Source: a phage
Sequence record: PX068454.1
DNA: 64,000 bases
Strand: one strand, 5' to 3'
Part shown: piece after piece, positions 1 to 60,571 of the stretch
How the letters are laid out: every line of letters starts with the position of its first letter
Position numbering within the stretch: the first letter of the stretch is position 1
The notes under the pieces: generated by a model
The model's input: only the letters and a program-made list of their open reading frames with translations
Database searches by the model: none
Told to the model about the DNA's origin: nothing
Translations under genes and position numbers: made by a program

Positions 1-788
1 TCCACGCAGATTGCAGGGTAATCGGTCAATGTCTCCAGGAACTTGGAGCGGTAAGGTTGGTGACCCATCACAACACGGCTCTCATCAGAACTGGTATAAC
101 CTTTCAGGATGGTCATTTTCCAGCCATCCTTCTCGTAATGATACTGTGCCTCAACCTTGTCACCTTCTAACATCTTACTGGTCATGGGATCGGTGACAGT
201 GAACGGAAATTTTGCATAGCGCAGGCATGATGCAATAGCGGTGCGATATTTCAGAACATGCTCTTTCTTAACATGAAACTGAACTTTTACCCCGTTGTGC
301 TCTTCAGTCTTCCGCTCACGGATCTTGGTGACATTTGGGATACCCTGGTCCAAGAACAATAGGTATGTGCTTTCCACACCGTTGTGCACACTGATTACAT
401 CGAAAGTGTCCACCATGCTGAACGGGGCCTTTGAACCAACACCTTTATTGCCTACCAGAGCGTTGCTGTTGCGCTTGGTCGACTCACCGAGGTTCATGAA
501 AGTGTTACGGACCATCTCTTCTGACATGCCTAATCCAACGTCCTGCACAAAGAAGTATGGTTCAAGGTCTGTAGGAGAGTGAATGATGATCGGTACATCA
601 CCTCGTCCAGACTCAACATGTGAGTCCACAGCATTGAAGATCGGTTCACGGCAGCTTGCCAGTACCTTATCTTCATAAATCCCTTTGATGATTAGCCCAA
701 AAGTCTCTTTGTTCAGAGAAATTGATCCCCTGGTTACCTCCATATTCCCAGTTAGCACCGCTTTAGTTTCATTGCTGTTTACAATCAT
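1..788 (-). CDS. rIIA: rIIA-like GHKL (Bergerat-fold) ATPase, N-terminal 262 codons only; 3' end lies beyond the window start
   Basis: Minus-strand frame open from ATG at 788-786 to position 1 (absent from ORF track because the stop is off-window); SD AAGGAG upstream; motifs REPIFNAVDS (N box), DVGLGMSEE (G1), GNKGVGSKAPFSMVDTF (G2) resemble T4 rIIA N-terminus as I recall it; start overlaps upstream stop (ATGA). Confidence 0.6.
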   Translation of the reverse strand, partial: MIVNSNETKAVLTGNMEVTRGSISLNKETFGLIIKGIYEDKVLASCREPIFNAVDSHVESGRGDVPIIIHSPTDLEPYFFVQDVGLGMSEEMVRNTFMNLGESTKRNSNALVGNKGVGSKAPFSMVDTFDVISVHNGVESTYLLFLDQGIPNVTKIRERKTEEHNGVKVQFHVKKEHVLKYRTAIASCLRYAKFPFTVTDPMTSKMLEGDKVEAQYHYEKDGWKMTILKGYTSSDESRVVMGHQPYRSKFLETLTDYPAICV

Positions 789-1285
789 TTATTGCGCTCC
801 TTGTAGTAGATATGGCTCCCGAATTGAGCTGTCCTCTGCATCTTTTTTGCCCATTTCGGTCGTACTTTTGTTGTATGGTAGTGTGTTGCTCCGCCTGTTA
901 TATCCATAGCCATGTATGCAACATGGTTGTTATTATAGACCTTTAGAAGCATCTTTGCAAGACTTTTAGCGTGATCCCATGAATCTTTTTCTGTCACCTT
1001 AAAAGTTTTGCCGTGGTTTGTCCACGAAAACTGGTTAGGTTGGTAGACAATCTTTCTTATAGTGTCTGGGTATTTGGGGTGAGATTTCCTGTTTAGTGTG
1101 GCAAATCCGGATGCCAGCATACCCATCGTGCCATCCCCTCTAGCCTCCCTGTAGATATTGCATGCTAGAATGTTTTCCTTAGTATCCGACGGCTTGCAAG
1201 TGTGATATACTTTTTGTTTTGGTGCTGCAACAACAGGCAGCGATAAAAATGCGCTCAAAATAATAGCAAAGATTTTAATTTTCAC
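785..1285 (-). CDS. SleB-type cell-wall hydrolase (Hydrolase_2-like) with N-terminal Sec signal peptide
   Basis: N-terminus MKIKIFAIILSAFLSLPVVAAP is signal-peptide-like; NIYREARGDG...QPNQFS...GGATHYHT...FGSHIYY matches SleB/CwlJ family motifs. Confidence 0.7.
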   Translation of the reverse strand: MKIKIFAIILSAFLSLPVVAAPKQKVYHTCKPSDTKENILACNIYREARGDGTMGMLASGFATLNRKSHPKYPDTIRKIVYQPNQFSWTNHGKTFKVTEKDSWDHAKSLAKMLLKVYNNNHVAYMAMDITGGATHYHTTKVRPKWAKKMQRTAQFGSHIYYKERNK

Positions 1286-1289
1286 AATA

Positions 1290-1321
1290 ACTCCAAATAG
1301 AAAATCCCCGCCGAAGCGGGG
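1290..1321 (-). terminator. rho-independent terminator, UUCG-tetraloop hairpin
   Basis: CCCCGCCGAAGCGGGG perfect hairpin followed on minus strand by T-rich tract; just downstream of stop of 1335..1715. Confidence 0.6.
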
Positions 1322-1334
1322 TGTGTCTTAGAAA

Positions 1335-1715
1335 TTAATCGTAGTGTGCCAAAATCTCTCCATCGTTGCAAGTCCCCTCTACGAAGTTGTGAAGATTCAT
1401 GCATTCATCTTGATAGAAGAATTTACCGCTTTTCAGCCGTAGACCAAACAACTCCGCATCTCCACGATGGCAAGCCTCTACAAGTTCATAGATTTCATAC
1501 GGTAATTCCCCATCGTCATGGAAGAACCCCGCTTTATCGTTGACATAGATGAAGAAATAGTCACTGCTGTCGCAAGCGTCCAGTATTTTAAACCAGATTT
1601 CATCCACATCTTTTTCTCGGATATCGATCACACAAGTGGAGCTGCATTCGTACTCCTTCTCCGGCTCCTCGGTCAATACCACCAAGTAGTTTCCCCGCTT
1701 ACCTACTTTAGCCAT
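1335..1715 (-). CDS. hypothetical protein
   Basis: 126-aa ORF, co-directional, followed by terminator. Confidence 0.55.
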   Translation of the reverse strand: MAKVGKRGNYLVVLTEEPEKEYECSSTCVIDIREKDVDEIWFKILDACDSSDYFFIYVNDKAGFFHDDGELPYEIYELVEACHRGDAELFGLRLKSGKFFYQDECMNLHNFVEGTCNDGEILAHYD

Positions 1716-1724
1716 ACAACCTCC

Positions 1725-2909
1725 TCAAGCTTTAGCTAAAATGGCGCTAAACTCTTCACCAAACTCTTTTACAATCTTCATCAGGTTTGGGTATGCTTTG
1801 ATCAGCTGAGCAACGATCTTGTCCCTGCCTTTACCAATAAGTAAGGCATTTCCTAAGGCGTTAGGTTTCATCATCGCCATAAAGACTGAGAATACAAAGT
1901 CTCGGTTCTCATCCTTGAAATTTTCCCAAAGGAAATCAAGGAAGTTTGCCACACAGCTGACGAGATCTTCGTCGGAGATACTTGCATTTTCCATCATATT
2001 ACGAATAGCGATACAACCTTCAGACCCCAGAATCCACAAGATGTCTGGCTGCTTAGGACCTACATATTCTTTGCAGCCTCCTGCCATAATCCGACCGATT
2101 TCTGGCAAGTTTCGTTTCTTGGTGTGGTAGGTCCAAATTTCTACCGCTGCAGTGTGACCAATGGCACCTTGTAGAAGGACACGGGCCATAGCGTCAGAAA
2201 TAATACCGCTGTCAAAATCGTGCAAGATGTCAGATGCAGCAACCCAAGAGCGCGGTGTAGCAAAAGATGGACAATTAATCTCAGCCATGGCCTCATAATT
2301 ATCGATGGCCGATGGGACTCTTTTCAGATATCCAATTACCGAGGAGTGCACCCCATTAAGGAATGCATAGTCCTCAATAAACACCTCTGCACTGCTTGTA
2401 ACTTCTACAATGATAAAGCGGTTAGCTAGAGGAGCTTCGAGTGCCGAAAGAACAGCACCGTCTGTAGCACGGTTACCTGCAGCTACAAAAACAGAGCCTT
2501 TAGGAAATGCATAGGTGCCGCACTTGTGGTCGAGCATAATTTGCATTGCAACCTTCTGCAGGTAGTTATCTGCATGAGTAAGCTCGTCTAGAAAGATAAT
2601 TCCGCTCCAGTCCGGATCTGCAGGCCAAAATTCTGGAATTGCAAACACTGTACGTGTAGTTCCATCTGCCTCCACAGGGATAGGCAGTCCAGATAAGTCA
2701 GCAGGATCTTTATCTGACAACCGCACGTCAACCAGGTTGTCATCTCGCTCACCGAACATATTATCAGCAATCTGCTTCATCACCTGGCTCTTCCCCACGC
2801 CCATCGGTCCTAAAATCAGGACAGATCGGTTATGACGCTGGGCAAATTGAACAATGGCTGGCAACTCGCGGACAGTGATTTGACCACTTTCGAATACGTT
2901 TCTCGACAT
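1725..2909 (-). CDS. MoxR-like AAA+ ATPase (AAA_5 type)
   Basis: Walker A GPMGVGKS, Walker B IIFLDELTHA, arginine-containing sensor region AAGNRATDG; 394 aa. Confidence 0.8.
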   Translation of the reverse strand: MSRNVFESGQITVRELPAIVQFAQRHNRSVLILGPMGVGKSQVMKQIADNMFGERDDNLVDVRLSDKDPADLSGLPIPVEADGTTRTVFAIPEFWPADPDWSGIIFLDELTHADNYLQKVAMQIMLDHKCGTYAFPKGSVFVAAGNRATDGAVLSALEAPLANRFIIVEVTSSAEVFIEDYAFLNGVHSSVIGYLKRVPSAIDNYEAMAEINCPSFATPRSWVAASDILHDFDSGIISDAMARVLLQGAIGHTAAVEIWTYHTKKRNLPEIGRIMAGGCKEYVGPKQPDILWILGSEGCIAIRNMMENASISDEDLVSCVANFLDFLWENFKDENRDFVFSVFMAMMKPNALGNALLIGKGRDKIVAQLIKAYPNLMKIVKEFGEEFSAILAKA

Positions 2910-3178
2910 TAGTAAAAGTCCTCTACTTGTGTGTAAGTGTTTTCAAAGTTTTCCAAAACAGACATCACATCGGATCTGTCAATATCATACGCAACTCTCC
3001 AGCCATATGCAACCCTTTCTGCTGTTGCCTCTTCTGGCGCTAGTCGTCTGCTGGCATAAAAGAGTGTTGGAGTACACTTTCTTGCTTGCCCTCTAACTTT
3101 CCCATAATAATATCTGTGAATATCTTTGTCAAAATTTAATTCTTTTTCTGCACGAAGTTCGTACTGCTGGTATAACAT
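2909..3178 (-). CDS. hypothetical protein
   Basis: 89-aa ORF abutting MoxR gene. Confidence 0.45.
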   Translation of the reverse strand: MLYQQYELRAEKELNFDKDIHRYYYGKVRGQARKCTPTLFYASRRLAPEEATAERVAYGWRVAYDIDRSDVMSVLENFENTYTQVEDFY

Positions 3179-3222
3179 CTCTACTGCTCCTTAAGCAGCA
3201 TCCTTGCTGCCATCCATACCCA

Positions 3223-3603
3223 CTAAAATGCAGTCCGAATCCAGACAAGGTTCTTATCCGCCCAATCATAGAGGCAAGTCATTGCACTATTGAATTGCTC
3301 ACACGGAGGATAATCTTCTTCCATCTTGCGCATAGCAGAGCCTTGTGGGTAAAGCTCCCGTGCTGCAAACCACGCGTCGTAGTCATCAACGGTATCGAAG
3401 TAGTATACAACATCCTCCAACTCAGGATCGAACTTTGAACTATCAGGATCCAGCTGTTCAGGGAACTTGGAGCGTAACTTGCCAGCCACAATACTTGCCA
3501 ACTCGCTAACATGCTTGTTGTCCCACTCTACCAGTTTCCCGTCTTCAGTTATGCGTCCTAACCACTGATCATGAAGGTCAACTGTTGTCTTCCACTGGGC
3601 CAT
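3223..3603 (-). CDS. hypothetical protein
   Basis: 126-aa ORF in minus-strand early operon. Confidence 0.55.
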   Translation of the reverse strand: MAQWKTTVDLHDQWLGRITEDGKLVEWDNKHVSELASIVAGKLRSKFPEQLDPDSSKFDPELEDVVYYFDTVDDYDAWFAARELYPQGSAMRKMEEDYPPCEQFNSAMTCLYDWADKNLVWIRTAF

Positions 3604-3605
3604 TA

Positions 3606-3857
3606 TCAGTCTACCTCTTCTTCTCGTTGCAGTTCAAGATACCCATAGGTCTGGATATCTTCAAGGGTGTGGAACTCTCCATCTGCTGCTAAGGCACGGA
3701 CAACCTGGCATAGAGTTTTATAAGGTACTTTCTCCAAACCCAGATTCAGCGCAGGAAAAAACTTATCTAAGTCAACAAAATATACAAACTGTAGCTCACC
3801 AGTTTCAAAAGGCGTATCTTCGATAAACATCTTCTCGGCATTAGTCAAGATCTGCAC
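3606..3857 (-). CDS. hypothetical protein
   Basis: 83-aa ORF, tight spacing to neighbours. Confidence 0.5.
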   Translation of the reverse strand: MQILTNAEKMFIEDTPFETGELQFVYFVDLDKFFPALNLGLEKVPYKTLCQVVRALAADGEFHTLEDIQTYGYLELQREEEVD

Positions 3858-3862
3858 TTTTA

Positions 3863-4219
3863 TTATTCTACCCCCTCTTCTTTTTCTTCAGCATTAGTTT
3901 CAGTGCTACCCCACTCTGGAGTTTCCACCTCGATAGTGAACTCACGCACTACACGGTAATTGCCCATGAAGCGCTCCACTTCTTCAAGGCTTATGGAGAG
4001 GCCATTGGCAACCAAATCTGCAGCACCCTTCTCTACCAGGTAGTCCAGATTGGCTTCCAAGGCTTCAGGCTCAAACCCTGTCAATGCAATCATATAACCT
4101 TCCCCTTCATCAAGGAGGGCAATACAGCCCAACTGATTTTCTTTAAAAAAGCAGTGACCATCACTATTGATTGGTTGCTCATTGCAGTAAATAGCTGCAC
4201 GATAAGTAACTTTAGACAT
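3863..4219 (-). CDS. hypothetical acidic protein
   Basis: 118-aa ORF, acidic C-terminus. Confidence 0.55.
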   Translation of the reverse strand: MSKVTYRAAIYCNEQPINSDGHCFFKENQLGCIALLDEGEGYMIALTGFEPEALEANLDYLVEKGAADLVANGLSISLEEVERFMGNYRVVREFTIEVETPEWGSTETNAEEKEEGVE

Positions 4220-4231
4220 TGGTAGGCCTCC

Positions 4232-4510
4232 TTAGGCAACTGTCATTTTACATTCTTGAAATTTTAGCACAAGACGGTGATTGTGTCTAGTGTCTAAAAA
4301 GATTTTTTCAACCATCAGGCACACGGTGTAACCGTCCATCTTGTTGACAACAAAATCCTCAGGGTGAGGGAGAATGTCCCCAGGATTGGGGAAACATAAC
4401 CCGCTCAAGAAGGCATCATCGGTGGTGGACCTGATGGATTTCCACACACTATCTGCCTGGACACTCTCACCAACATAATATACACTACCACATGCCTTCA
4501 TCATAGTCAA
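4232..4510 (-). CDS. hypothetical protein
   Basis: 92-aa ORF, overlaps upstream gene by 4 nt. Confidence 0.5.
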   Translation of the reverse strand: MTMMKACGSVYYVGESVQADSVWKSIRSTTDDAFLSGLCFPNPGDILPHPEDFVVNKMDGYTVCLMVEKIFLDTRHNHRLVLKFQECKMTVA

Positions 4511-5406
4511 ATCTCCGCGTAAATTAAACTGGAATCAGTATACTTCTTTAGTGGGTAAATATCCTGTCCATAGATGCCGTCATTAAACACCTCATCTACC
4601 CAAAGGCTACACTTATATCCCATCATCTCTAAAACACCCATCTCTTCTTCGGTAAACTTATCACCGCTCTTGCAAGATGTCAACACCTCATTCTGTACTC
4701 TTGCTACCTCGAAGCGATTATTGGCAATATCGCTATTAGCGATCAAATACTCACCCAAAGGGTGTGCGGCATTAAAGATGCACAGTGGACGGTTGACGTA
4801 ATAGTCTCCAGGTGTATAAAAATTATTGAGGTCTTTCACTAGAACATTCTTATCAGTCACTTCATTTATAACATCATGCATATCGCACATCTTTATATGT
4901 TTGAGGATTCCATCCCCCATCACAAAATAAAAACTTGCTGAAACACTTTCGGCATAGATCTTACTAGATCCGTTGTAGTTGTATTTTACTCGGATGCTAA
5001 CGGGGGTTTTTCCTGTCGCGTTAGCCATCATCCAAAGAAATGGCAGCTCATACTTCTCCTCTGAGGAAACAAAAGGTGAAGTAGCCAGAGATCGAAAACC
5101 TCCAGAGAAGTTGAAAGTTACAGAACCGCTCCGGCGGTATGATACTGCGTATTCTACTTTTATATCAACGTATCCGTTGGAGTAAGTATGCCCTCCATTA
5201 TCAAGGTATGTCCACTTATCAGACCCGGATACCAACCTCCGCTCAATTACCTTCATCACCATAGGAATTAGCGGATTAGTACAAACCGATCTTGAAGTAG
5301 CTTTATCATCCAAAGCCTCGTAAATTGCAGAAAGGATATCTCCAGCTGAAAGATTGGTTGTTATATCCTGTTGCCACCTGGTGCTAAAACTGTTAAGATT
5401 TGCCAT
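4507..5406 (-). CDS. hypothetical protein, first gene of minus-strand early operon
   Basis: 299-aa ORF; SD AGGAG 8 nt before ATG at 5406; promoter immediately upstream. Confidence 0.65.
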   Translation of the reverse strand: MANLNSFSTRWQQDITTNLSAGDILSAIYEALDDKATSRSVCTNPLIPMVMKVIERRLVSGSDKWTYLDNGGHTYSNGYVDIKVEYAVSYRRSGSVTFNFSGGFRSLATSPFVSSEEKYELPFLWMMANATGKTPVSIRVKYNYNGSSKIYAESVSASFYFVMGDGILKHIKMCDMHDVINEVTDKNVLVKDLNNFYTPGDYYVNRPLCIFNAAHPLGEYLIANSDIANNRFEVARVQNEVLTSCKSGDKFTEEEMGVLEMMGYKCSLWVDEVFNDGIYGQDIYPLKKYTDSSLIYAEI

Positions 5407-5445
5407 GAATAAGTGCTCCTATGTTAGTTTTCTTTCGAATGGGTG

Positions 5446-5475
5446 CACTATATCGGAGATTTAGAGTAAAGTCAA
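5446..5475 (-). promoter_or_regulatory. sigma70-like promoter (minus strand): TTGACT - 17 nt - TATAGT
   Basis: Read on minus strand: TTGACT ttactctaaatctccga TATAGT, about 40 nt upstream of ATG at 5406. Confidence 0.6.
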
Positions 5476-5488
5476 CACGTTTTTGAGG

Positions 5489-5517
5489 TTGACATCTCCC
5501 CAGGCTCTTGGTAAGAT
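5489..5517 (+). promoter_or_regulatory. sigma70-like promoter (plus strand): TTGACA - 17 nt - TAAGAT, A/T-rich upstream
   Basis: TTGACA at 5489-5494, TAAGAT at 5512-5517; -35 hexamers of the two divergent promoters form inverted repeat GTCAAC/GTTGAC 13 bp apart. Confidence 0.6.
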
Positions 5518-5548
5518 TTCTCCACCCACAGAGAACAAGAGACAACTC

Positions 5549-6538
5549 ATGAATCTTGAAAAATATTATACACCAGAAGAGTTAGAGCGCTTGCTCAAAA
5601 AATACAGACGCAAACAGAATAACGCACGGAAACGGGATATAGAGTTCAACCTGTCATGGGAAGAATATCTCCTATTTGGTAAAAAACTTTTAGGAGAGGG
5701 AGTATGCGACTATACCCTTATACCTTTCGACATGCACACAGATGAAAACGGACTGGGAAATCCTTTCTACCCATCTCTGGAGCGGATAGATGATGAAGGT
5801 CCTTATGCGGTTGATAATTGTTGTGTGGTGGGATTGAGATGCAACTCCCTAAAGGACTGCCTGGTAGATAAAAAGACCGCAGTCTTGATTAAAGACAAAA
5901 CTGATCGAAAAATTGTCCAGCAGATGATGCTCCACCTGAGCGAAGAGCGTATGGAGAAATTGAAAGGTGATTACACTTTTGAAGATTTCATCTTGCAATA
6001 TGGAACGGAAGAGGATAAACTGGCACTCTTTGACGAAGAATGGGAGGAAGATATGTCACCAATGCAGGATTTTAAAAACTTCATGGCTAATCGTGGAGCC
6101 AACAAGCACATTTCTGACATTGTAAACGAGCCTGTAGTAGAGGAGATTGAAGAGATGACGCAACAGGCTTACGAAGAGGAAAAAGAGCCTCAAGGGGTCG
6201 AAGAAGAGCTTACAGAAGAGGTTCCTGCACTGCCTGACGATGTTGAGATTGCCAAAGCTTACACTTTCTATTGCCAGACGTTCTACGATGCAGGTATGAA
6301 AGTTGATCTGTCCTTCAGCCAGTTTAAGAGCACATACATTCGAAAATGTTGTGCTTTAACTGGTGAGCGTCTCGGGGCCGGACTTAAACCACTATTAGTT
6401 ACCGACTGGAACAAAGGTTTCACCAAAGGTAACTTCATGGTAGTATCTCCAATCATGGAAAAGGCTATGACAGACCTTATGAAGACCACTCGCATGACAA
6501 TGACCGAGTTGGCTGGTATTTTCAAGCACGTTAAATAA
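5549..6538 (+). CDS. early protein with internal duplication and central acidic linker; function unknown
   Basis: ORF-track start 5483 lies upstream of the promoter -35, so start moved to in-frame ATG 5549; N-terminal segment (FNLSWEEY...GEGVCDY...) and C-terminal segment (DLSFSQF...CCALTGERLG...) look like repeats flanking an E/D-rich linker. Confidence 0.55.
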   Translation: MNLEKYYTPEELERLLKKYRRKQNNARKRDIEFNLSWEEYLLFGKKLLGEGVCDYTLIPFDMHTDENGLGNPFYPSLERIDDEGPYAVDNCCVVGLRCNSLKDCLVDKKTAVLIKDKTDRKIVQQMMLHLSEERMEKLKGDYTFEDFILQYGTEEDKLALFDEEWEEDMSPMQDFKNFMANRGANKHISDIVNEPVVEEIEEMTQQAYEEEKEPQGVEEELTEEVPALPDDVEIAKAYTFYCQTFYDAGMKVDLSFSQFKSTYIRKCCALTGERLGAGLKPLLVTDWNKGFTKGNFMVVSPIMEKAMTDLMKTTRMTMTELAGIFKHVK

Positions 6539-6542
6539 TGAC

Positions 6543-6568
6543 AGGGGCCATTGGCCCCTTCTGGAGTT
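6543..6568 (+). terminator. intergenic hairpin AGGGGCCATTGGCCCCT, attenuator or terminator-like
   Basis: Perfect 7-bp GC stem between 5549..6538 and next gene; near-identical palindrome recurs at 12562. Confidence 0.35.
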
Positions 6569-6571
6569 TTA

Positions 6572-8032
6572 ATGGATAGCAGAAGTTCAGAAATCATTAC
6601 CGCACAAAAAGATGATGCCTTGCGAATGCTGCAGGCCGCTCGCATGTACCTTCTTGAAAAGCTGCCGTTTTATGGCACACTGTTGTCAGGGTTGCAGTTC
6701 GTAGAAAACCACACATGGTGCTCCACTATGGCAACAGACCATAAACGCATCTACTACAGCCCTGAGTTCATTATGGGGTTGGCAGATGAGCGTAAAACCA
6801 TTCTTAAAGCATCTCTGACTGACAAGCAGTTTGAGATGGCTGAGGTTTTCTATTCCCCAAAATCTGTGAAAGAGGTGGCCTTTCTTCTGTCACATGAGGT
6901 GGGGCATATTATCTGTGATCATCTGGTCCGTGGTAAAAGCTTTGAGCCGGAACTGTTCAATATTGCTTGTGATCACGTTATCAACACAGGTCTTGTGGTT
7001 GACTTTAGCAAGCCTCCTTGTGTTTTCTTCCCGAAGGGGAAAAGCACTGAGTTCGTAAAAGGTAAGCCTTTTGGCTTCTTAGCTAGTTGCTACTGTGACA
7101 TGAAGTTTCATGGATGGATTGCTGAGAACGTCTATGCAGTTCTTGATAAACAAAGAGATCAGAATGGCGGTAAAAGTAAGAACGGTAAAGGTGAGAACTC
7201 CCAAGGAGATAAACGACAAACCGATGATCACATGAGGGGGAACGGTGGCACCAGTGATGATCTTGGAAAGGCTATGGGGTATGATCAGCCGCAACCAGTA
7301 ATCAGTCAATCTGATAAAGATCAGGCCATGCAGGACTCTGGTGACATGTTGGAAGCAGCAATGCAAGCTTCAGGAGGTCGTTGCCCTGAGGCGGTGCGCG
7401 AGTTTGTCAAAAACAAAGGCAAGCCTGTAATCAACTATATAGATATTATTAAGCAACGTATGTTGTCTAAACGAAAGGCCGAGCTAACCTACAGAAAACC
7501 TGGTCGCCGATCTGGGTCTTTGACCACCACAATGCGAAAAGTTGGAGCTATAAACAAGAATCAACACGTTATTGTTCCTGGTCGTAATCCGGAAAACACC
7601 ATAGATATTGTAGTGGCTTTGGACGTTTCTGGATCGATCTCGCAAAGAACTTTAAAGAAAATGTTCAATGAGATCACCGGGTTGTGCAATTTGTATAAAG
7701 AGTTTAAGGTTACGATGTTCTGTTGGTCAACCGAGGTTGGAGAGGTTAAAGTATACACTCGCGGTAACATCGATGAGATGATCAACTATGAGGTCCACTC
7801 AACATGGGGCACAACAGCCGCCTGCGTGTTCGAGTATCTGGATGCTAACATACCGAATGCAAAAGATGTCATCGTCCTTACCGACCTCTACTTTGAGCAT
7901 AACTTTGAACAAAAGGCTGTTGACAACAAGTGGAAAAAGTACGATACTTTATGGGTTCTCACCGAAGGGTATAATAAAAATTATATCCCGAGCTTTGGGA
8001 AAACTGTGGAATTAATCGAGTATGCTAAGTAA
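6572..8032 (+). CDS. VWA-domain protein with N-terminal HExxH metallopeptidase-like domain (DUF2201-type architecture)
   Basis: HEVGHIICDH zinc-binding-like motif in N-terminal half; MIDAS motif VALDVSGSIS in C-terminal half; start taken at ATG 6572 (SD GGAG) rather than 6551 inside hairpin. Confidence 0.7.
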   Translation: MDSRSSEIITAQKDDALRMLQAARMYLLEKLPFYGTLLSGLQFVENHTWCSTMATDHKRIYYSPEFIMGLADERKTILKASLTDKQFEMAEVFYSPKSVKEVAFLLSHEVGHIICDHLVRGKSFEPELFNIACDHVINTGLVVDFSKPPCVFFPKGKSTEFVKGKPFGFLASCYCDMKFHGWIAENVYAVLDKQRDQNGGKSKNGKGENSQGDKRQTDDHMRGNGGTSDDLGKAMGYDQPQPVISQSDKDQAMQDSGDMLEAAMQASGGRCPEAVREFVKNKGKPVINYIDIIKQRMLSKRKAELTYRKPGRRSGSLTTTMRKVGAINKNQHVIVPGRNPENTIDIVVALDVSGSISQRTLKKMFNEITGLCNLYKEFKVTMFCWSTEVGEVKVYTRGNIDEMINYEVHSTWGTTAACVFEYLDANIPNAKDVIVLTDLYFEHNFEQKAVDNKWKKYDTLWVLTEGYNKNYIPSFGKTVELIEYAK

Positions 8033-8047
8033 GAGAGGATAGTATTT

Positions 8048-8305
8048 ATGGCAACAGAGGTAGTAATTAAAGCTGAACGCCCAGTTAAAAAAGCTATCAA
8101 CACGTTCCCTGTAGGAACCATTGTGAGCATGATTACAGAGTCAGGCCGTGTATCTACACTGCTAATCGTGAAATCTGCATGCTCATCTTGTGTGTGGGCA
8201 TACGATCTTGACGAGAAAGAACTGAAAGATTTTGTCGGGGAGCTGAAAGCAACAGAGCTTGACGCTCGTATCGAAGTATTTGGTGAAACTATGGAGGAAG
8301 AGTAA
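8048..8305 (+). CDS. small early protein, tandem paralogue 1
   Basis: 85-aa ORF; sequence pattern shared with next two ORFs. Confidence 0.5.
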   Translation: MATEVVIKAERPVKKAINTFPVGTIVSMITESGRVSTLLIVKSACSSCVWAYDLDEKELKDFVGELKATELDARIEVFGETMEEE

Positions 8306-8568
8306 TGACTACAAAAATCACCATTGCAGAACCAAAAGCTAACACGCAACCTATCGAAAAGTTTAAATGCGGTGAGGTGGTAACATTCACACCAGATAAT
8401 GAAGATGCCAAGATTTTTGCCATGGTTACAGCCGAGTGGATGTGTGACAATACCACACAGGTGCTGCGTTTTGACACCTATCTTACAGATGAAATCAGGA
8501 ACGACAAGATCGTGACTGGTGTGGATACTGAGATTATTTTCTACAAGAGCTTTTTAGAGGGTTTCTGA
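8305..8568 (+). CDS. small early protein, tandem paralogue 2
   Basis: 87-aa ORF; TAATG overlap with previous gene. Confidence 0.5.
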   Translation: MTTKITIAEPKANTQPIEKFKCGEVVTFTPDNEDAKIFAMVTAEWMCDNTTQVLRFDTYLTDEIRNDKIVTGVDTEIIFYKSFLEGF

Positions 8569-8569
8569 T

Positions 8570-8803
8570 ATGGCAAAAATTCGTAAATTATCCAGCAATC
8601 AGGTTGTGAAAGACTTTGAATCTGGAGAGATCTTGTATGTCCGTGATGCAGATGATGAATGTGAAGATCTTGTTATGCTGGTAGGGTACGCTGAAGACGG
8701 ATGCATCCAGGCTGTTTTTCTTGAAACAGCGATGGTGCACTGGATAGAGCTGGACCTGAAAGCACGAAAACCTAAAGCAGAAATCATTATTTACGAAGAT
8801 TAA
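8570..8803 (+). CDS. small early protein, possible tandem paralogue 3
   Basis: 77-aa ORF, 1-nt spacing. Confidence 0.45.
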   Translation: MAKIRKLSSNQVVKDFESGEILYVRDADDECEDLVMLVGYAEDGCIQAVFLETAMVHWIELDLKARKPKAEIIIYED

Positions 8804-8819
8804 CAAGAAGGAGAGAGCC

Positions 8820-9269
8820 GTGTTGAGCAAACGTGAATGCGACAGCATTAGCCTGAATTCTTATAAAAAACAATGGTTTGGGGTAGAAGTTTGCCGACTA
8901 CGGCTGGGCTCCTACTTGAACTTCGTCCATTATGAGAGTGACAGTCGTATCGTTTCTTATGAAGTGTTCTACACTAAGAATACATTCGAGCTGAGACGTA
9001 AGGTGGATGGCGGGAGATCTGCCGCCCAGAATAATTGGGAAACTATTCTGCCTCCAGATGTTATAGGAAGTCCCCTGAATGTATCTGAAGATGAAAATCT
9101 TATGGTTCATGCTATGATGGGACTTGACAGCTTAGAGCTGGCGATCTATGATATGTCCATCGAAGCAGTTAAGTTGGACTACATCGAAAACACTTTAGAG
9201 GAAGGTATCAAGAAGTTTCTCGGTGAGAAATTGAAAGCCCACTTTCATAAGGAGCTATATCTGTTATGA
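8820..9269 (+). CDS. hypothetical protein
   Basis: 149-aa ORF, GTG start with SD AAGGAGAGAG. Confidence 0.5.
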   Translation: MLSKRECDSISLNSYKKQWFGVEVCRLRLGSYLNFVHYESDSRIVSYEVFYTKNTFELRRKVDGGRSAAQNNWETILPPDVIGSPLNVSEDENLMVHAMMGLDSLELAIYDMSIEAVKLDYIENTLEEGIKKFLGEKLKAHFHKELYLL

Positions 9270-59758: not shown

Positions 59759-59835
59759 TGGTCTCCACGGAGTGATTCGAACACTCGACCTCCTGATCCC
59801 AAATCAGGCGCTCTACCAAGCTGAGCTACGCGGAG
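59759..59835 (-). tRNA. tRNA-Pro (anticodon UGG)
   Basis: Manual cloverleaf: 7-bp acceptor with one G-U, T-arm GAGTG/TTCGAAT/CACTC, anticodon loop UUUGGGA, encoded CCA. Confidence 0.7.
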
Positions 59836-59846
59836 TATTTATAATT

Positions 59847-59921
59847 TGGTGGCCCTGGGTGGAATTGAACCACCGTCTGGCGATTATGAGTCGCTTGCTT
59901 GAACCTTCCAGCTACAGGGCC
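59847..59921 (-). tRNA. tRNA-Met or tRNA-Ile2 (anticodon CAU)
   Basis: T-arm GGTGG/TTCAATT/CCACC, anticodon loop CUCAUAA, encoded CCA. Confidence 0.65.
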
Positions 59922-59922
59922 A

Positions 59923-59998
59923 TGGTGCTGATGGCAGGACTTGAACCTGCAACCTATTGATTACAAATCAATTGCACTGCCAATTGTGCTACATCAGC
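59923..59998 (-). tRNA. tRNA-Thr (anticodon UGU)
   Basis: T-arm GCAGG/TTCAAGT/CCTGC, anticodon stem ATTGA/TCAAT, loop UUUGUAA, encoded CCA. Confidence 0.7.
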
Positions 59999-60002
59999 AA
60001 AA

Positions 60003-60102
60003 AGGTGCTAGGTGGTGGAATCGAACCACCTATGTATTCAACGACTACCTCGTCTATTTTCAGGATTAAAAATCCTCGCCCTTGCCAAAGGGCTTACCTA
60101 GC
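60003..60102 (-). tRNA. atypical tRNA-like gene (about 100 nt; UUU in anticodon-loop position; about 31-nt variable region; no encoded CCA)
   Basis: Perfect 7-bp acceptor GCTAGGT/ACCTAGC, D-arm GCCC/GGGC, T-arm GGTGG/TTCGATT/CCACC, only 4-bp anticodon stem, extra hairpin GACGA-GGTAG-TCGTT. Confidence 0.4.
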
Positions 60103-60200
60103 GCAATATGTTGACCATGTGGCTAGTCGGCGATGACGACTGTAACATTTGGTAATCCGGTTCTGCTTCCGGCTTTCGCTTAATTACATAGTCAACAATA

Positions 60201-60291
60201 TGGAGGAGGGTAATGGAATCGAACCATCATCGAGTCATCCTCAACGGGACGGTTTTCAAGACCGCTTGAGCACCATTGCTCCCTACCCTCC
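60201..60291 (-). tRNA. tRNA-Ser (anticodon UGA), class II
   Basis: Anticodon arm GCGGT/CUUGAAA/ACCGT, long variable arm, T-loop TTCGATT, encoded CCA; 91 nt. Confidence 0.75.
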
Positions 60292-60405
60292 TTTATAAAC
60301 AATACTGATAATGACACTGATTTTCGAGCAGTTAGTGACTAGTATAAACGACGATAAATATCAATGCCATTATCTGTATGATTTATGCATTTAAAAATAT
60401 AAATT

Positions 60406-60492
60406 TGGTGGGGAGTGGTGGAGTCGAACCACCCGAGTCGCAATGACAATAGATTTACAGTCTACACCGCTACCTCTACGGGATAACTCCCC
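60406..60492 (-). tRNA. tRNA-Tyr (anticodon GUA), class II
   Basis: Anticodon arm GTAGA/CUGUAAA/TCTAT, long variable arm, T-arm GGTGG/TTCGACT/CCACC, encoded CCA; 87 nt. Confidence 0.75.
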
Positions 60493-60496
60493 AATT

Positions 60497-60571
60497 TGGC
60501 ACCCCGTACTGGACTCGAACCAGTGTCAACGGCTTAGAAGGCCGCTGCTTTATCCACTAAGCTAACAGGGC
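60497..60571 (-). tRNA. tRNA-Arg (anticodon UCU)
   Basis: T-arm ACTGG/TTCGAGT/CCAGT, anticodon loop CUUCUAA, acceptor with two G-U pairs, encoded CCA. Confidence 0.65.

Follow-up and report, generated by a model that had tools for sequence, protein, structure and literature searches.

A MoxR-class ATPase and a predicted zincin-VWA protein on the two arms of a divergent promoter in a Vequintavirus: a possible counter-defence module

What use does a lytic phage have for a MoxR-type ATPase and a protein that joins a putative metallopeptidase domain to a VWA domain, when the two genes lie on opposite strands on either side of a divergent promoter? Known MoxR ATPases act through VWA partners, and the cellular MoxR-VWA pairs are mostly metalloenzyme maturases. 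The question is raised by the first 9 kb of a 64,000-nucleotide stretch of phage DNA (sequence record PX068454.1; hereafter the window). The window belongs to a Vequintavirus, one of the rV5/FV3-like myoviruses of E. coli: over its first 9 kb it shares 98.1% identity with phage S127 BCL3, and at least 80% of this part is covered in 114 phage records. Open reading frames (ORFs) for both proteins were confirmed, on the strands and at the positions given below. The identity of the pair is secure. We read the two genes as encoding both parts of a conserved phage MoxR-VWA module and, as to its role, lean towards an early, accessory, ATP-driven counter-defence module in which a target would be remodelled and cleaved.

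1725..2909, minus strand: MoxR/AAA_5-class AAA+ ATPase, 394 aa (rV5 gp4; ortholog of bas54_0063)
6572..8032, plus strand: DUF2201_N zincin and DUF2201 VWA protein, 486 aa, here called the partner (rV5 gp12; ortholog of bas54_0055)

The ATPase and its predicted zincin-VWA partner

Walker A (GPMGVGKS) and Walker B (IIFLDE) of the ATPase were located at 2787-2810 and 2583-2600, with exact translation. The initial annotation had placed the protein in the AAA_5/MoxR class from its motifs. Direct Pfam searches did not bear this out: the AAA_5 score of 16.9 bits lies below the gathering score of 22, no Pfam AAA match exceeded its curated cut-off, there was no AAA_3 match at all, and the sub-threshold Pfam AAA matches span chiefly the Walker A region. 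NCBIfam and PADLOC returned only sub-threshold Walker-A-type matches. The class was upheld by other evidence. Relatives with ∼35% identity (E∼1e-44) carry PF07726 (AAA_3) and PF07728 (AAA_5), these matches being marked weak wherever a grade appears. A profile of 50 family members searched against the PDB gave midasin as the best match (E=1.7e-10). In the structure model, beta-hairpins occupy the positions of the clade-7 AAA+ helix-2 insert and of the pre-sensor-1 hairpin, and the closest folds are those of the MoxR/dynein/midasin class. The product of 1725-2909(-) is therefore a MoxR/AAA_5-class ATPase on the strength of its homologs' Pfam domains, the midasin profile match and the modelled hairpins rather than of the direct Pfam score.

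The partner was matched by DUF2201_N (PF13203; 100.7 bits against a cut-off of 23.2, residues 88-314) and by DUF2201 (PF09967; 43.9 bits against 26.4, residues 346-481), which Pfam describes as a 'putative metallopeptidase domain' and a 'VWA-like domain'. Its HEVGH motif is encoded at 6893-6907 and its DVSGS motif at 7622-7636, again with exact translation, so the combination of an HExxH motif with a VWA domain bearing a metal-ion-dependent adhesion site (MIDAS), first read from the motifs, was borne out by both profiles. HEVGH lies on a predicted helix (residues 99-118), and the following helix (126-144) carries the candidate further ligands D134 and N138. The VWA domain extends from about residue 340 to 486 and has a complete MIDAS (D351, S353, S355, T414 and D438); residues 200-228 form a disordered linker rich in Gly, Lys and Asp. 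An HExxH on a helix followed by a conserved ligand on the next helix was thus found at the level of sequence and secondary structure, and it is from these that the zinc site and the peptidase activity are predicted. The partner had no match in NCBIfam or PADLOC. Its family is large: 17,679 cluster representatives match at E<=1e-10, and 25,485 at the looser E<=1e-3.

Conservation was assessed in alignments of 50 ATPases and 28 partners. In the ATPase, G37, G39, K40, S41, D108 and E109 are invariant, as are sensor 1 (N146, in VAAGN), R164 (in LANRF) and sensor 2 (P219-R220, in ATPRSW); by analogy with the family, N146, R164 and R220 would have arginine-finger and sensor roles. In the partner, H108, H112, D134 and N138 are invariant, E109 is present in 27 of the 28 sequences, and the five MIDAS residues vary little or not at all. 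Six divergent lineages were compared: Vequintavirus-like, N4-like and Rak2-like jumbo phages, another jumbo contig, metagenomic phage contigs and a Saccharofermentans metagenome-assembled genome (MAG). All six keep Walker A and B, sensor 1, R164 and sensor 2 of the ATPase and the HExxH, D134 and five MIDAS residues of the partner. The Walker motifs are kept in all lineages sampled; Walker B is E-E in two jumbo-contig ATPases, whose Walker A region falls outside the alignment. Since the active-site residues are kept across the six lineages, the predicted ATPase, metal-binding and peptidase activities all appear to be under selection.

Two points concern the records of partner genes. PHROG 1314 carries the label 'HNH endonuclease', which was rejected for the partner: it has no HNH domain and matches DUF2201_N and DUF2201. 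The same label has spread in RefSeq phage records of DUF2201 zincin-VWA proteins, including N4 gp25, 121Q gp564 and GAP31_033, none of which has an HNH domain. In rV5 (NC_011041.1, 7756-9214; genes 12 and 13 of Table S3) the partner gene is annotated as two overlapping ORFs (441 aa and 81 aa) and is covered in tblastn only by two separate pieces, which points to either a frameshift or a sequencing error within the VWA domain.

Distribution, relatives and promoters of the pair

Searches by tblastn recovered 618 phage records with the partner and 813 with the ATPase. Co-occurrence was scored in 51 loci, some drawn from public records and the others retrieved with the partner gene or one of its relatives as bait; the baits were three single partner-family proteins, the full partner alignment having no conserved stretch of 7-10 columns. 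In 49 of the 51, an ATPase homolog was present no more than 10 kb from the partner gene; these loci include some from N4-like phages, from jumbo phages of the Rak2-like group and one more contig of jumbo-phage size, from phage-like metagenomic contigs and from a single bacterial MAG. The initial annotation had reasoned from bacterial MoxR-VWA pairs and had named co-occurrence in related genomes as a test; the pairing held in that survey. In one of the two exceptions, L023, the partner gene stands at a contig end. The other, L017, is IMGVR_UViG_3300045988_163358, from an uncultured 136-kb phage clade (46% identity) with no more than 47% identity to any GenBank relative; it keeps the order of an Srd-like gene followed by the partner.

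Outside the Vequintavirinae the ATPase is always upstream of the partner on the same strand. The two genes are usually adjacent, as in most N4-like phages, in 121Q and other Rak2-like jumbo phages, in the metagenomic contigs and in the bacterial MAG, and up to ∼4 kb apart in some Rak2-related contigs. In the window they are on opposite strands, 3.6 kb apart, and the same divergent arrangement, with 3.5-4.4 kb between the genes, was found in Vequintavirus, in a sister clade at 61% identity and in Seunavirus GAP31. Both genes are retained in all Vequintavirinae examined. As every other lineage has the ATPase upstream on the same strand, gene order indicates that the divergent split is derived, a secondary rearrangement of an ancestral ATPase-to-partner operon. 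Thymidylate synthase and dCTP deaminase are recurrent neighbours of the pair, joined in the N4-like phage PBM-2 and in the Vequintavirinae by rIIA.

The bacterial copy of the adjacent ATPase-to-partner pair is in a Saccharofermentans sp. MAG (L006/L064, JAZRYF010000023.1). Its neighbours encode a 1076-aa SNF2/ResIII helicase, a protein kinase, a PP2C phosphatase, a VWA protein and a JAB peptidase, and the neighbourhood looks like a conflict island. A scan of a genome collection with the Saccharofermentans homolog recovered its own genome alone.

The pair, its domains and its promoter layout were already known at every level described here. The 2013 rV5 paper (PMC3606486) listed gp4 as 'MoxR - ATPase' and gp12 as 'CHP; DUF2201_N' and annotated a bidirectional promoter; genes, promoter region and genus are those of the window, and the authors did not link the two genes. 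Many GenBank records already name the genes MoxR ATPase and metallopeptidase or VWA-like protein. In Escherichia phage MaxBurger (Bas54), bas54_0063 ('MoxR ATPase') is 99.0% identical to the window ATPase over 394 aa and bas54_0055 ('putative metallopeptidase') is the partner ortholog, with the same gene order, neighbours and divergent layout; the two phages are different isolates of one genus and show no difference of substance. The finding in the window itself thus adds nothing beyond public records. The annotations and comparative-genomics papers examined here leave the function of the pair blank.

Among the relatives are N4 gp24 (AAA ATPase) and gp25 (vWFA), which belong to the 14-gene core of N4-like phages (Schitoviridae), are carried on middle transcripts and are listed as of unknown function in published core-gene tables. 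Alignment by hhalign gave a probability of 99.9% (E=4.7e-35) for gp24 with the window ATPase and of 99.95% (E=5.2e-38) for gp25 with the partner; gp25 carries HELWH and DTSGS motifs. The N4 pair is likewise of middle or early expression class, with nucleotide-metabolism neighbours, and in PBM-2 rIIA lies further downstream of the pair. The N4 genes differ from those of the window in being co-directional and 168 nt apart, adjacency being the rule in most N4-like phages, and in encoding shorter proteins (352 aa and 380 aa): the gp24 alignment ends before the C-terminal ∼80 residues of the window ATPase, and gp25 lacks the two Vequintavirinae insertions. In jumbo phages, Iyer et al. 2021 (PMC7824862) described a MoxR-vWA 'chaperone-cochaperone' pair whose vWA protein bears an N-terminal metallopeptidase. 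It has the same two-protein architecture, and its Rak2-like representatives are direct homologs of the window pair.

Among cellular proteins, CbbQ/CbbO, NorQ/NorD, RavA/ViaA, BchI/BchD and midasin, which has a MIDAS of its own, share the AAA+ fold class, and cellular MoxR-VWA pairs resemble the window pair in the MIDAS-bearing VWA partner and in genomic coupling. In contrast, none of the cellular partners has a zincin domain, identity to the window proteins is below 20%, and the cellular pairs mature or remodel enzymes and ribosomes rather than acting in virus-host conflict. Also comparable are the vWA-MoxR-VMAP ternary conflict systems of bacterial defence, which add a third component, VMAP (Kaur et al. 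2020, PMC7159879). These systems also place a MoxR and vWA core in conflict, sometimes with peptidase effectors fused to the vWA protein, but they defend bacteria, whereas the window module is used by a virus. A Pfam scan of eight neighbours of the window pair found no VMAP component, the only match being Hydrolase_2.

The promoters and the features between the two genes are as follows.

2909..3178, minus strand: 89-aa ORF (rV5 gp5), just upstream of the ATPase
3104..3132, minus strand: internal sigma70-like promoter candidate, TTGACA-17-TATTAT, 11/12, inside the 89-aa ORF
5447..5475, minus strand: leftward promoter of the divergent pair, TTGACT-17-TATAGT, heading the arm that runs from gp10 through the ATPase to rIIA
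5489..5517, plus strand: rightward promoter, TTGACA-17-TAAGAT with an upstream TG, heading the arm that runs from Srd to the DUF2201 protein and small ORFs
5549..6538, plus strand: Srd-like anti-sigma factor gene (rV5 gp11), from PHROG Srd/sigma70-decoy matches, GenBank annotation and the rV5 paper
6543..6559, plus strand: perfect 7-bp GC-rich hairpin, AGGGGCC ATT GGCCCCT, after the Srd stop codon and before the partner start codon

The intergenic region 5407-5548 contains back-to-back sigma70-type sites, each scoring 10/12, with their -35 hexamers 13 bp apart; the minus-strand site reads from 5475 to 5447 and the plus-strand site from 5489 to 5517. The AGTCAA-N13-TTGACA core is kept in a clade with just ∼65% identity in the adjacent Srd gene, and GAP31 has an 11/12 promoter-like site upstream of its Srd gene. 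The ATPase is ∼2.5 kb and six genes downstream of the shared divergent promoter. The best-scoring promoter-like site in positions 1-9000 is instead that at 3104-3132(-), 194 nt upstream of the ATPase start codon, which recurs at the same position and with the same score in JeffSchatz, BP9, L012 and the 72%-identity clade L013/L014; it is within a coding region, so its conservation could partly reflect coding constraint. With this stronger conserved site so close, expression of the ATPase may be independent of the shared divergent promoter and may, from sequence, be driven by a promoter of its own. The divergent layout had been described correctly in the initial annotation as far as the two sites go; its assignment of the ATPase to the leftward one is less certain. 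The stronger site near the ATPase, the derived nature of the split and the prior literature and GenBank annotation are points which that annotation had missed.

Counter-defence and the alternative roles

The one genetic result on the ATPase was obtained by others, with the 99%-identical Bas54 ortholog. In the HIDEN-SEQ preprint (bioRxiv 10.1101/2025.11.20.689424), Bas54 was analyzed by transposon-insertion sequencing, and bas54_0063 and bas54_0140 were reported as 'specifically required to overcome DS-28'. This defence system was predicted in CFE311, a urinary isolate. The authors tested the claim with knockouts on K-12 carrying cloned DS-28, and a clean bas54_0063 knockout was reported to be sensitive specifically to the cloned system. 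DS-28 was described in the DefensePredictor study as two genes encoding a hypothetical protein and a HEPN-family nuclease. On K-12, insertions were recovered at 60 of the 64 TA sites of the ATPase gene and at 81 of the 86 of bas54_0055 (94% each), both being non-essential, as was every Bas54 gene from 0045 to 0068 (Extended Data Table 8). On CFE311, the log2 fold change was -7.23 (q=0) for bas54_0063, -5.48 (q=0) for bas54_0140 and -2.20 (p=0.0009, q=0.009) for the partner bas54_0055 (Extended Data Table 8); Srd (bas54_0056), the 89-aa ORF (bas54_0062, +0.24), the other genes between the pair, rIIA and rIIB were unchanged. The ATPase has thus been shown by others, in a preprint, to be dispensable on K-12 and required against DS-28. 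The co-depletion of the partner on CFE311 goes unmentioned by the HIDEN-SEQ authors. Two other papers on phage gene essentiality held nothing on the ATPase or partner genes. In Extended Data Table 8, the sheet 'resampling_K-12_vs_CFE303' bears a '311' command line, and the next sheet has identical numbers.

Three roles had been put forward in the initial annotation: host takeover, virion assembly and counter-defence. The last now has experimental backing for the ATPase, and virion assembly is disfavoured. In the module that we favour, both genes would be transcribed early from host-type promoters and the ATPase would assemble into a hexameric AAA+ ring. By analogy with CbbQ/CbbO, NorQ/NorD and midasin, the MIDAS of the partner would dock on an acidic residue of the target protein or of the ATPase itself, and ATP hydrolysis would remodel the target, letting the fused zinc-peptidase domain cut it. 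The target would be a component of DS-28 or whatever activates DS-28, and the module an ATP-driven counter-defence protease. This scheme is drawn from the way cellular MoxR-VWA pairs work and from the conservation of every catalytic residue. The broader proposal, that the pair is a single ATP-powered machine that grabs, remodels and cuts host immune proteins, DS-28 here and other targets in N4-like and jumbo phages, is offered tentatively and we regard it as rather doubtful as it stands.

Several points weigh against a joint counter-defence module. The genetic evidence comes from an unreviewed preprint, and the anti-DS-28 genes named by its authors are bas54_0063 and the unrelated small gene bas54_0140, not the partner. 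Depletion of the partner on CFE311 was ∼30-fold weaker than that of the ATPase, resembles that of about a dozen other moderately depleted genes (0051, 0123-0129, 0157) and was measured on the whole clinical isolate rather than on cloned DS-28; for these reasons the co-depletion is suggestive only as a sign of a shared role. In L017 the 10 kb on each side of the partner contain no ATPase homolog. Neither PDB sequence search nor profile or fold searches found a solved-structure relative of the N-terminal domain of the partner: its profile gave marginal integrin matches only in the PDB, and both fold searches returned VWA domains alone and did not place the zincin domain.

The main rival holds that the two functions are uncoupled, the Vequintavirinae ATPase countering DS-28 alone or with bas54_0140 while the partner, now in a transcription unit of its own, has another function or merely assists. 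The very unequal effect sizes (-7.23 and -2.20), the authors' singling out of 0063 and 0140, the 3.6 kb between genes on opposite strands, the possible separate promoter of the ATPase and the partner of L017 with no ATPase nearby all fit it. Set against them are the near-universal linkage of the two genes elsewhere and the retention of both in all Vequintavirinae examined, the invariance of the MIDAS and HExxH residues, the depletion of the partner, still significant, in the same host, and the known dependence of MoxR ATPases on VWA partners. On this evidence we consider uncoupled functions unlikely, and the two remaining explanations less likely again.

The first of these is that the pair matures or remodels early phage enzymes, or serves host takeover, in the manner of NorQ/NorD, CoxD/CoxE and the chelatases; it would activate a phage or host enzyme or supply it with a cofactor, and the DS-28 phenotype would be indirect. 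Thymidylate synthase and dCTP deaminase adjoin the pair in N4, PBM-2, 121Q and metagenomic contigs, a gene annotated as thymidylate kinase lies near it in GAP31, and the cellular pairs are, as stated above, mostly maturases of metalloenzymes. Neither gene carries a fitness cost on K-12, however, a conserved peptidase domain is not obviously needed for maturation, and the knockout phenotype was reported to be specific to DS-28; this explanation is improbable.

A chaperone and processing protease for virion assembly, the role that Iyer et al. 2021 proposed for the jumbo-phage pair from an analogy to MoxR-VWA proteins in Acidianus two-tailed virus (PMC7824862), and one in keeping with the position of the 121Q pair directly after a structural-gene block, is very improbable, and the Vequintavirus data point away from it: both genes tolerate insertions at 94% of their TA sites on K-12, neither rV5 gp4 nor gp12 is among the proteins with virion mass-spectrometry evidence (PMC3606486), the promoters are host-type and the neighbours early genes, the N4 homologs are middle genes, and a dedicated prohead protease (bas54_0006) is listed elsewhere in the Bas54 gene table. 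Accessory early counter-defence fits the data better, because the genes are non-essential, absent from the virion evidence, under host-type promoters and homologous to N4 middle genes.

Few accessory modules of large lytic phages are as widely conserved as this pair, which spans the N4-like core, the Vequintavirinae and their relatives, Rak2-like and other jumbo phages, and a protein family of more than 17,000 clusters, and one recent genetic result now links its ATPase to counter-defence. If the partner acts with the ATPase, an energy-dependent anti-immunity protease would be defined, and phage-therapy genomics would gain a functional label for a very common pair. Should the two proteins form a single machine, this would be a new mechanistic class of anti-defence factor and would assign a function to N4 gp24/gp25. 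The co-depletion of the partner on CFE311 makes both the joint mechanism and the target directly testable.

Neighbouring genes and other features of the window

The TAA stop of the 89-aa ORF and the ATG of the ATPase share one base (TAATG), an overlap which suggests translational coupling. By annotation, a small ORF overlaps the ATPase start in GAP31 too. PHROG 13164 labels the 89-aa ORF 'ATPase'; this was rejected, as the label has no domain support, and the ORF is probably outside the activity of the module. The Srd-like gene is the first of the rightward arm, between the promoter and the partner gene, and is context only, outside the module. The folding energy of the hairpin at 6543-6559 is unexceptional (z=-1.6).

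The leftward arm is flanked by rIIA, which is cut off at the start of the window, and by a Hydrolase_2 protein with a signal-like N-terminus, in keeping with the rIIA and secreted hydrolase reported in the initial annotation. The hydrolase gene, at 785-1285(-) between rIIA and the ATPase arm, encodes a SleB/CwlJ-type cell-wall hydrolase with a signal-peptide-like N-terminus; it is not near the lysis genes, and the ortholog in Bas54 is non-essential.

Sixteen unannotated 'Campylobacter phage' records (MG065644, MG065662, MG065672, MG065674, MG065677 and others) have ∼93.5% identity to this Vequintavirus over 9 kb; they list C. jejuni as host, and these host labels look doubtful. Seven clustered tRNA genes (Pro, Met, Thr, Ser, Tyr, Arg) were located at 59759-60571(-), one of them a 99-nt ARAGORN call at 60004-60102 with a four-base anticodon.

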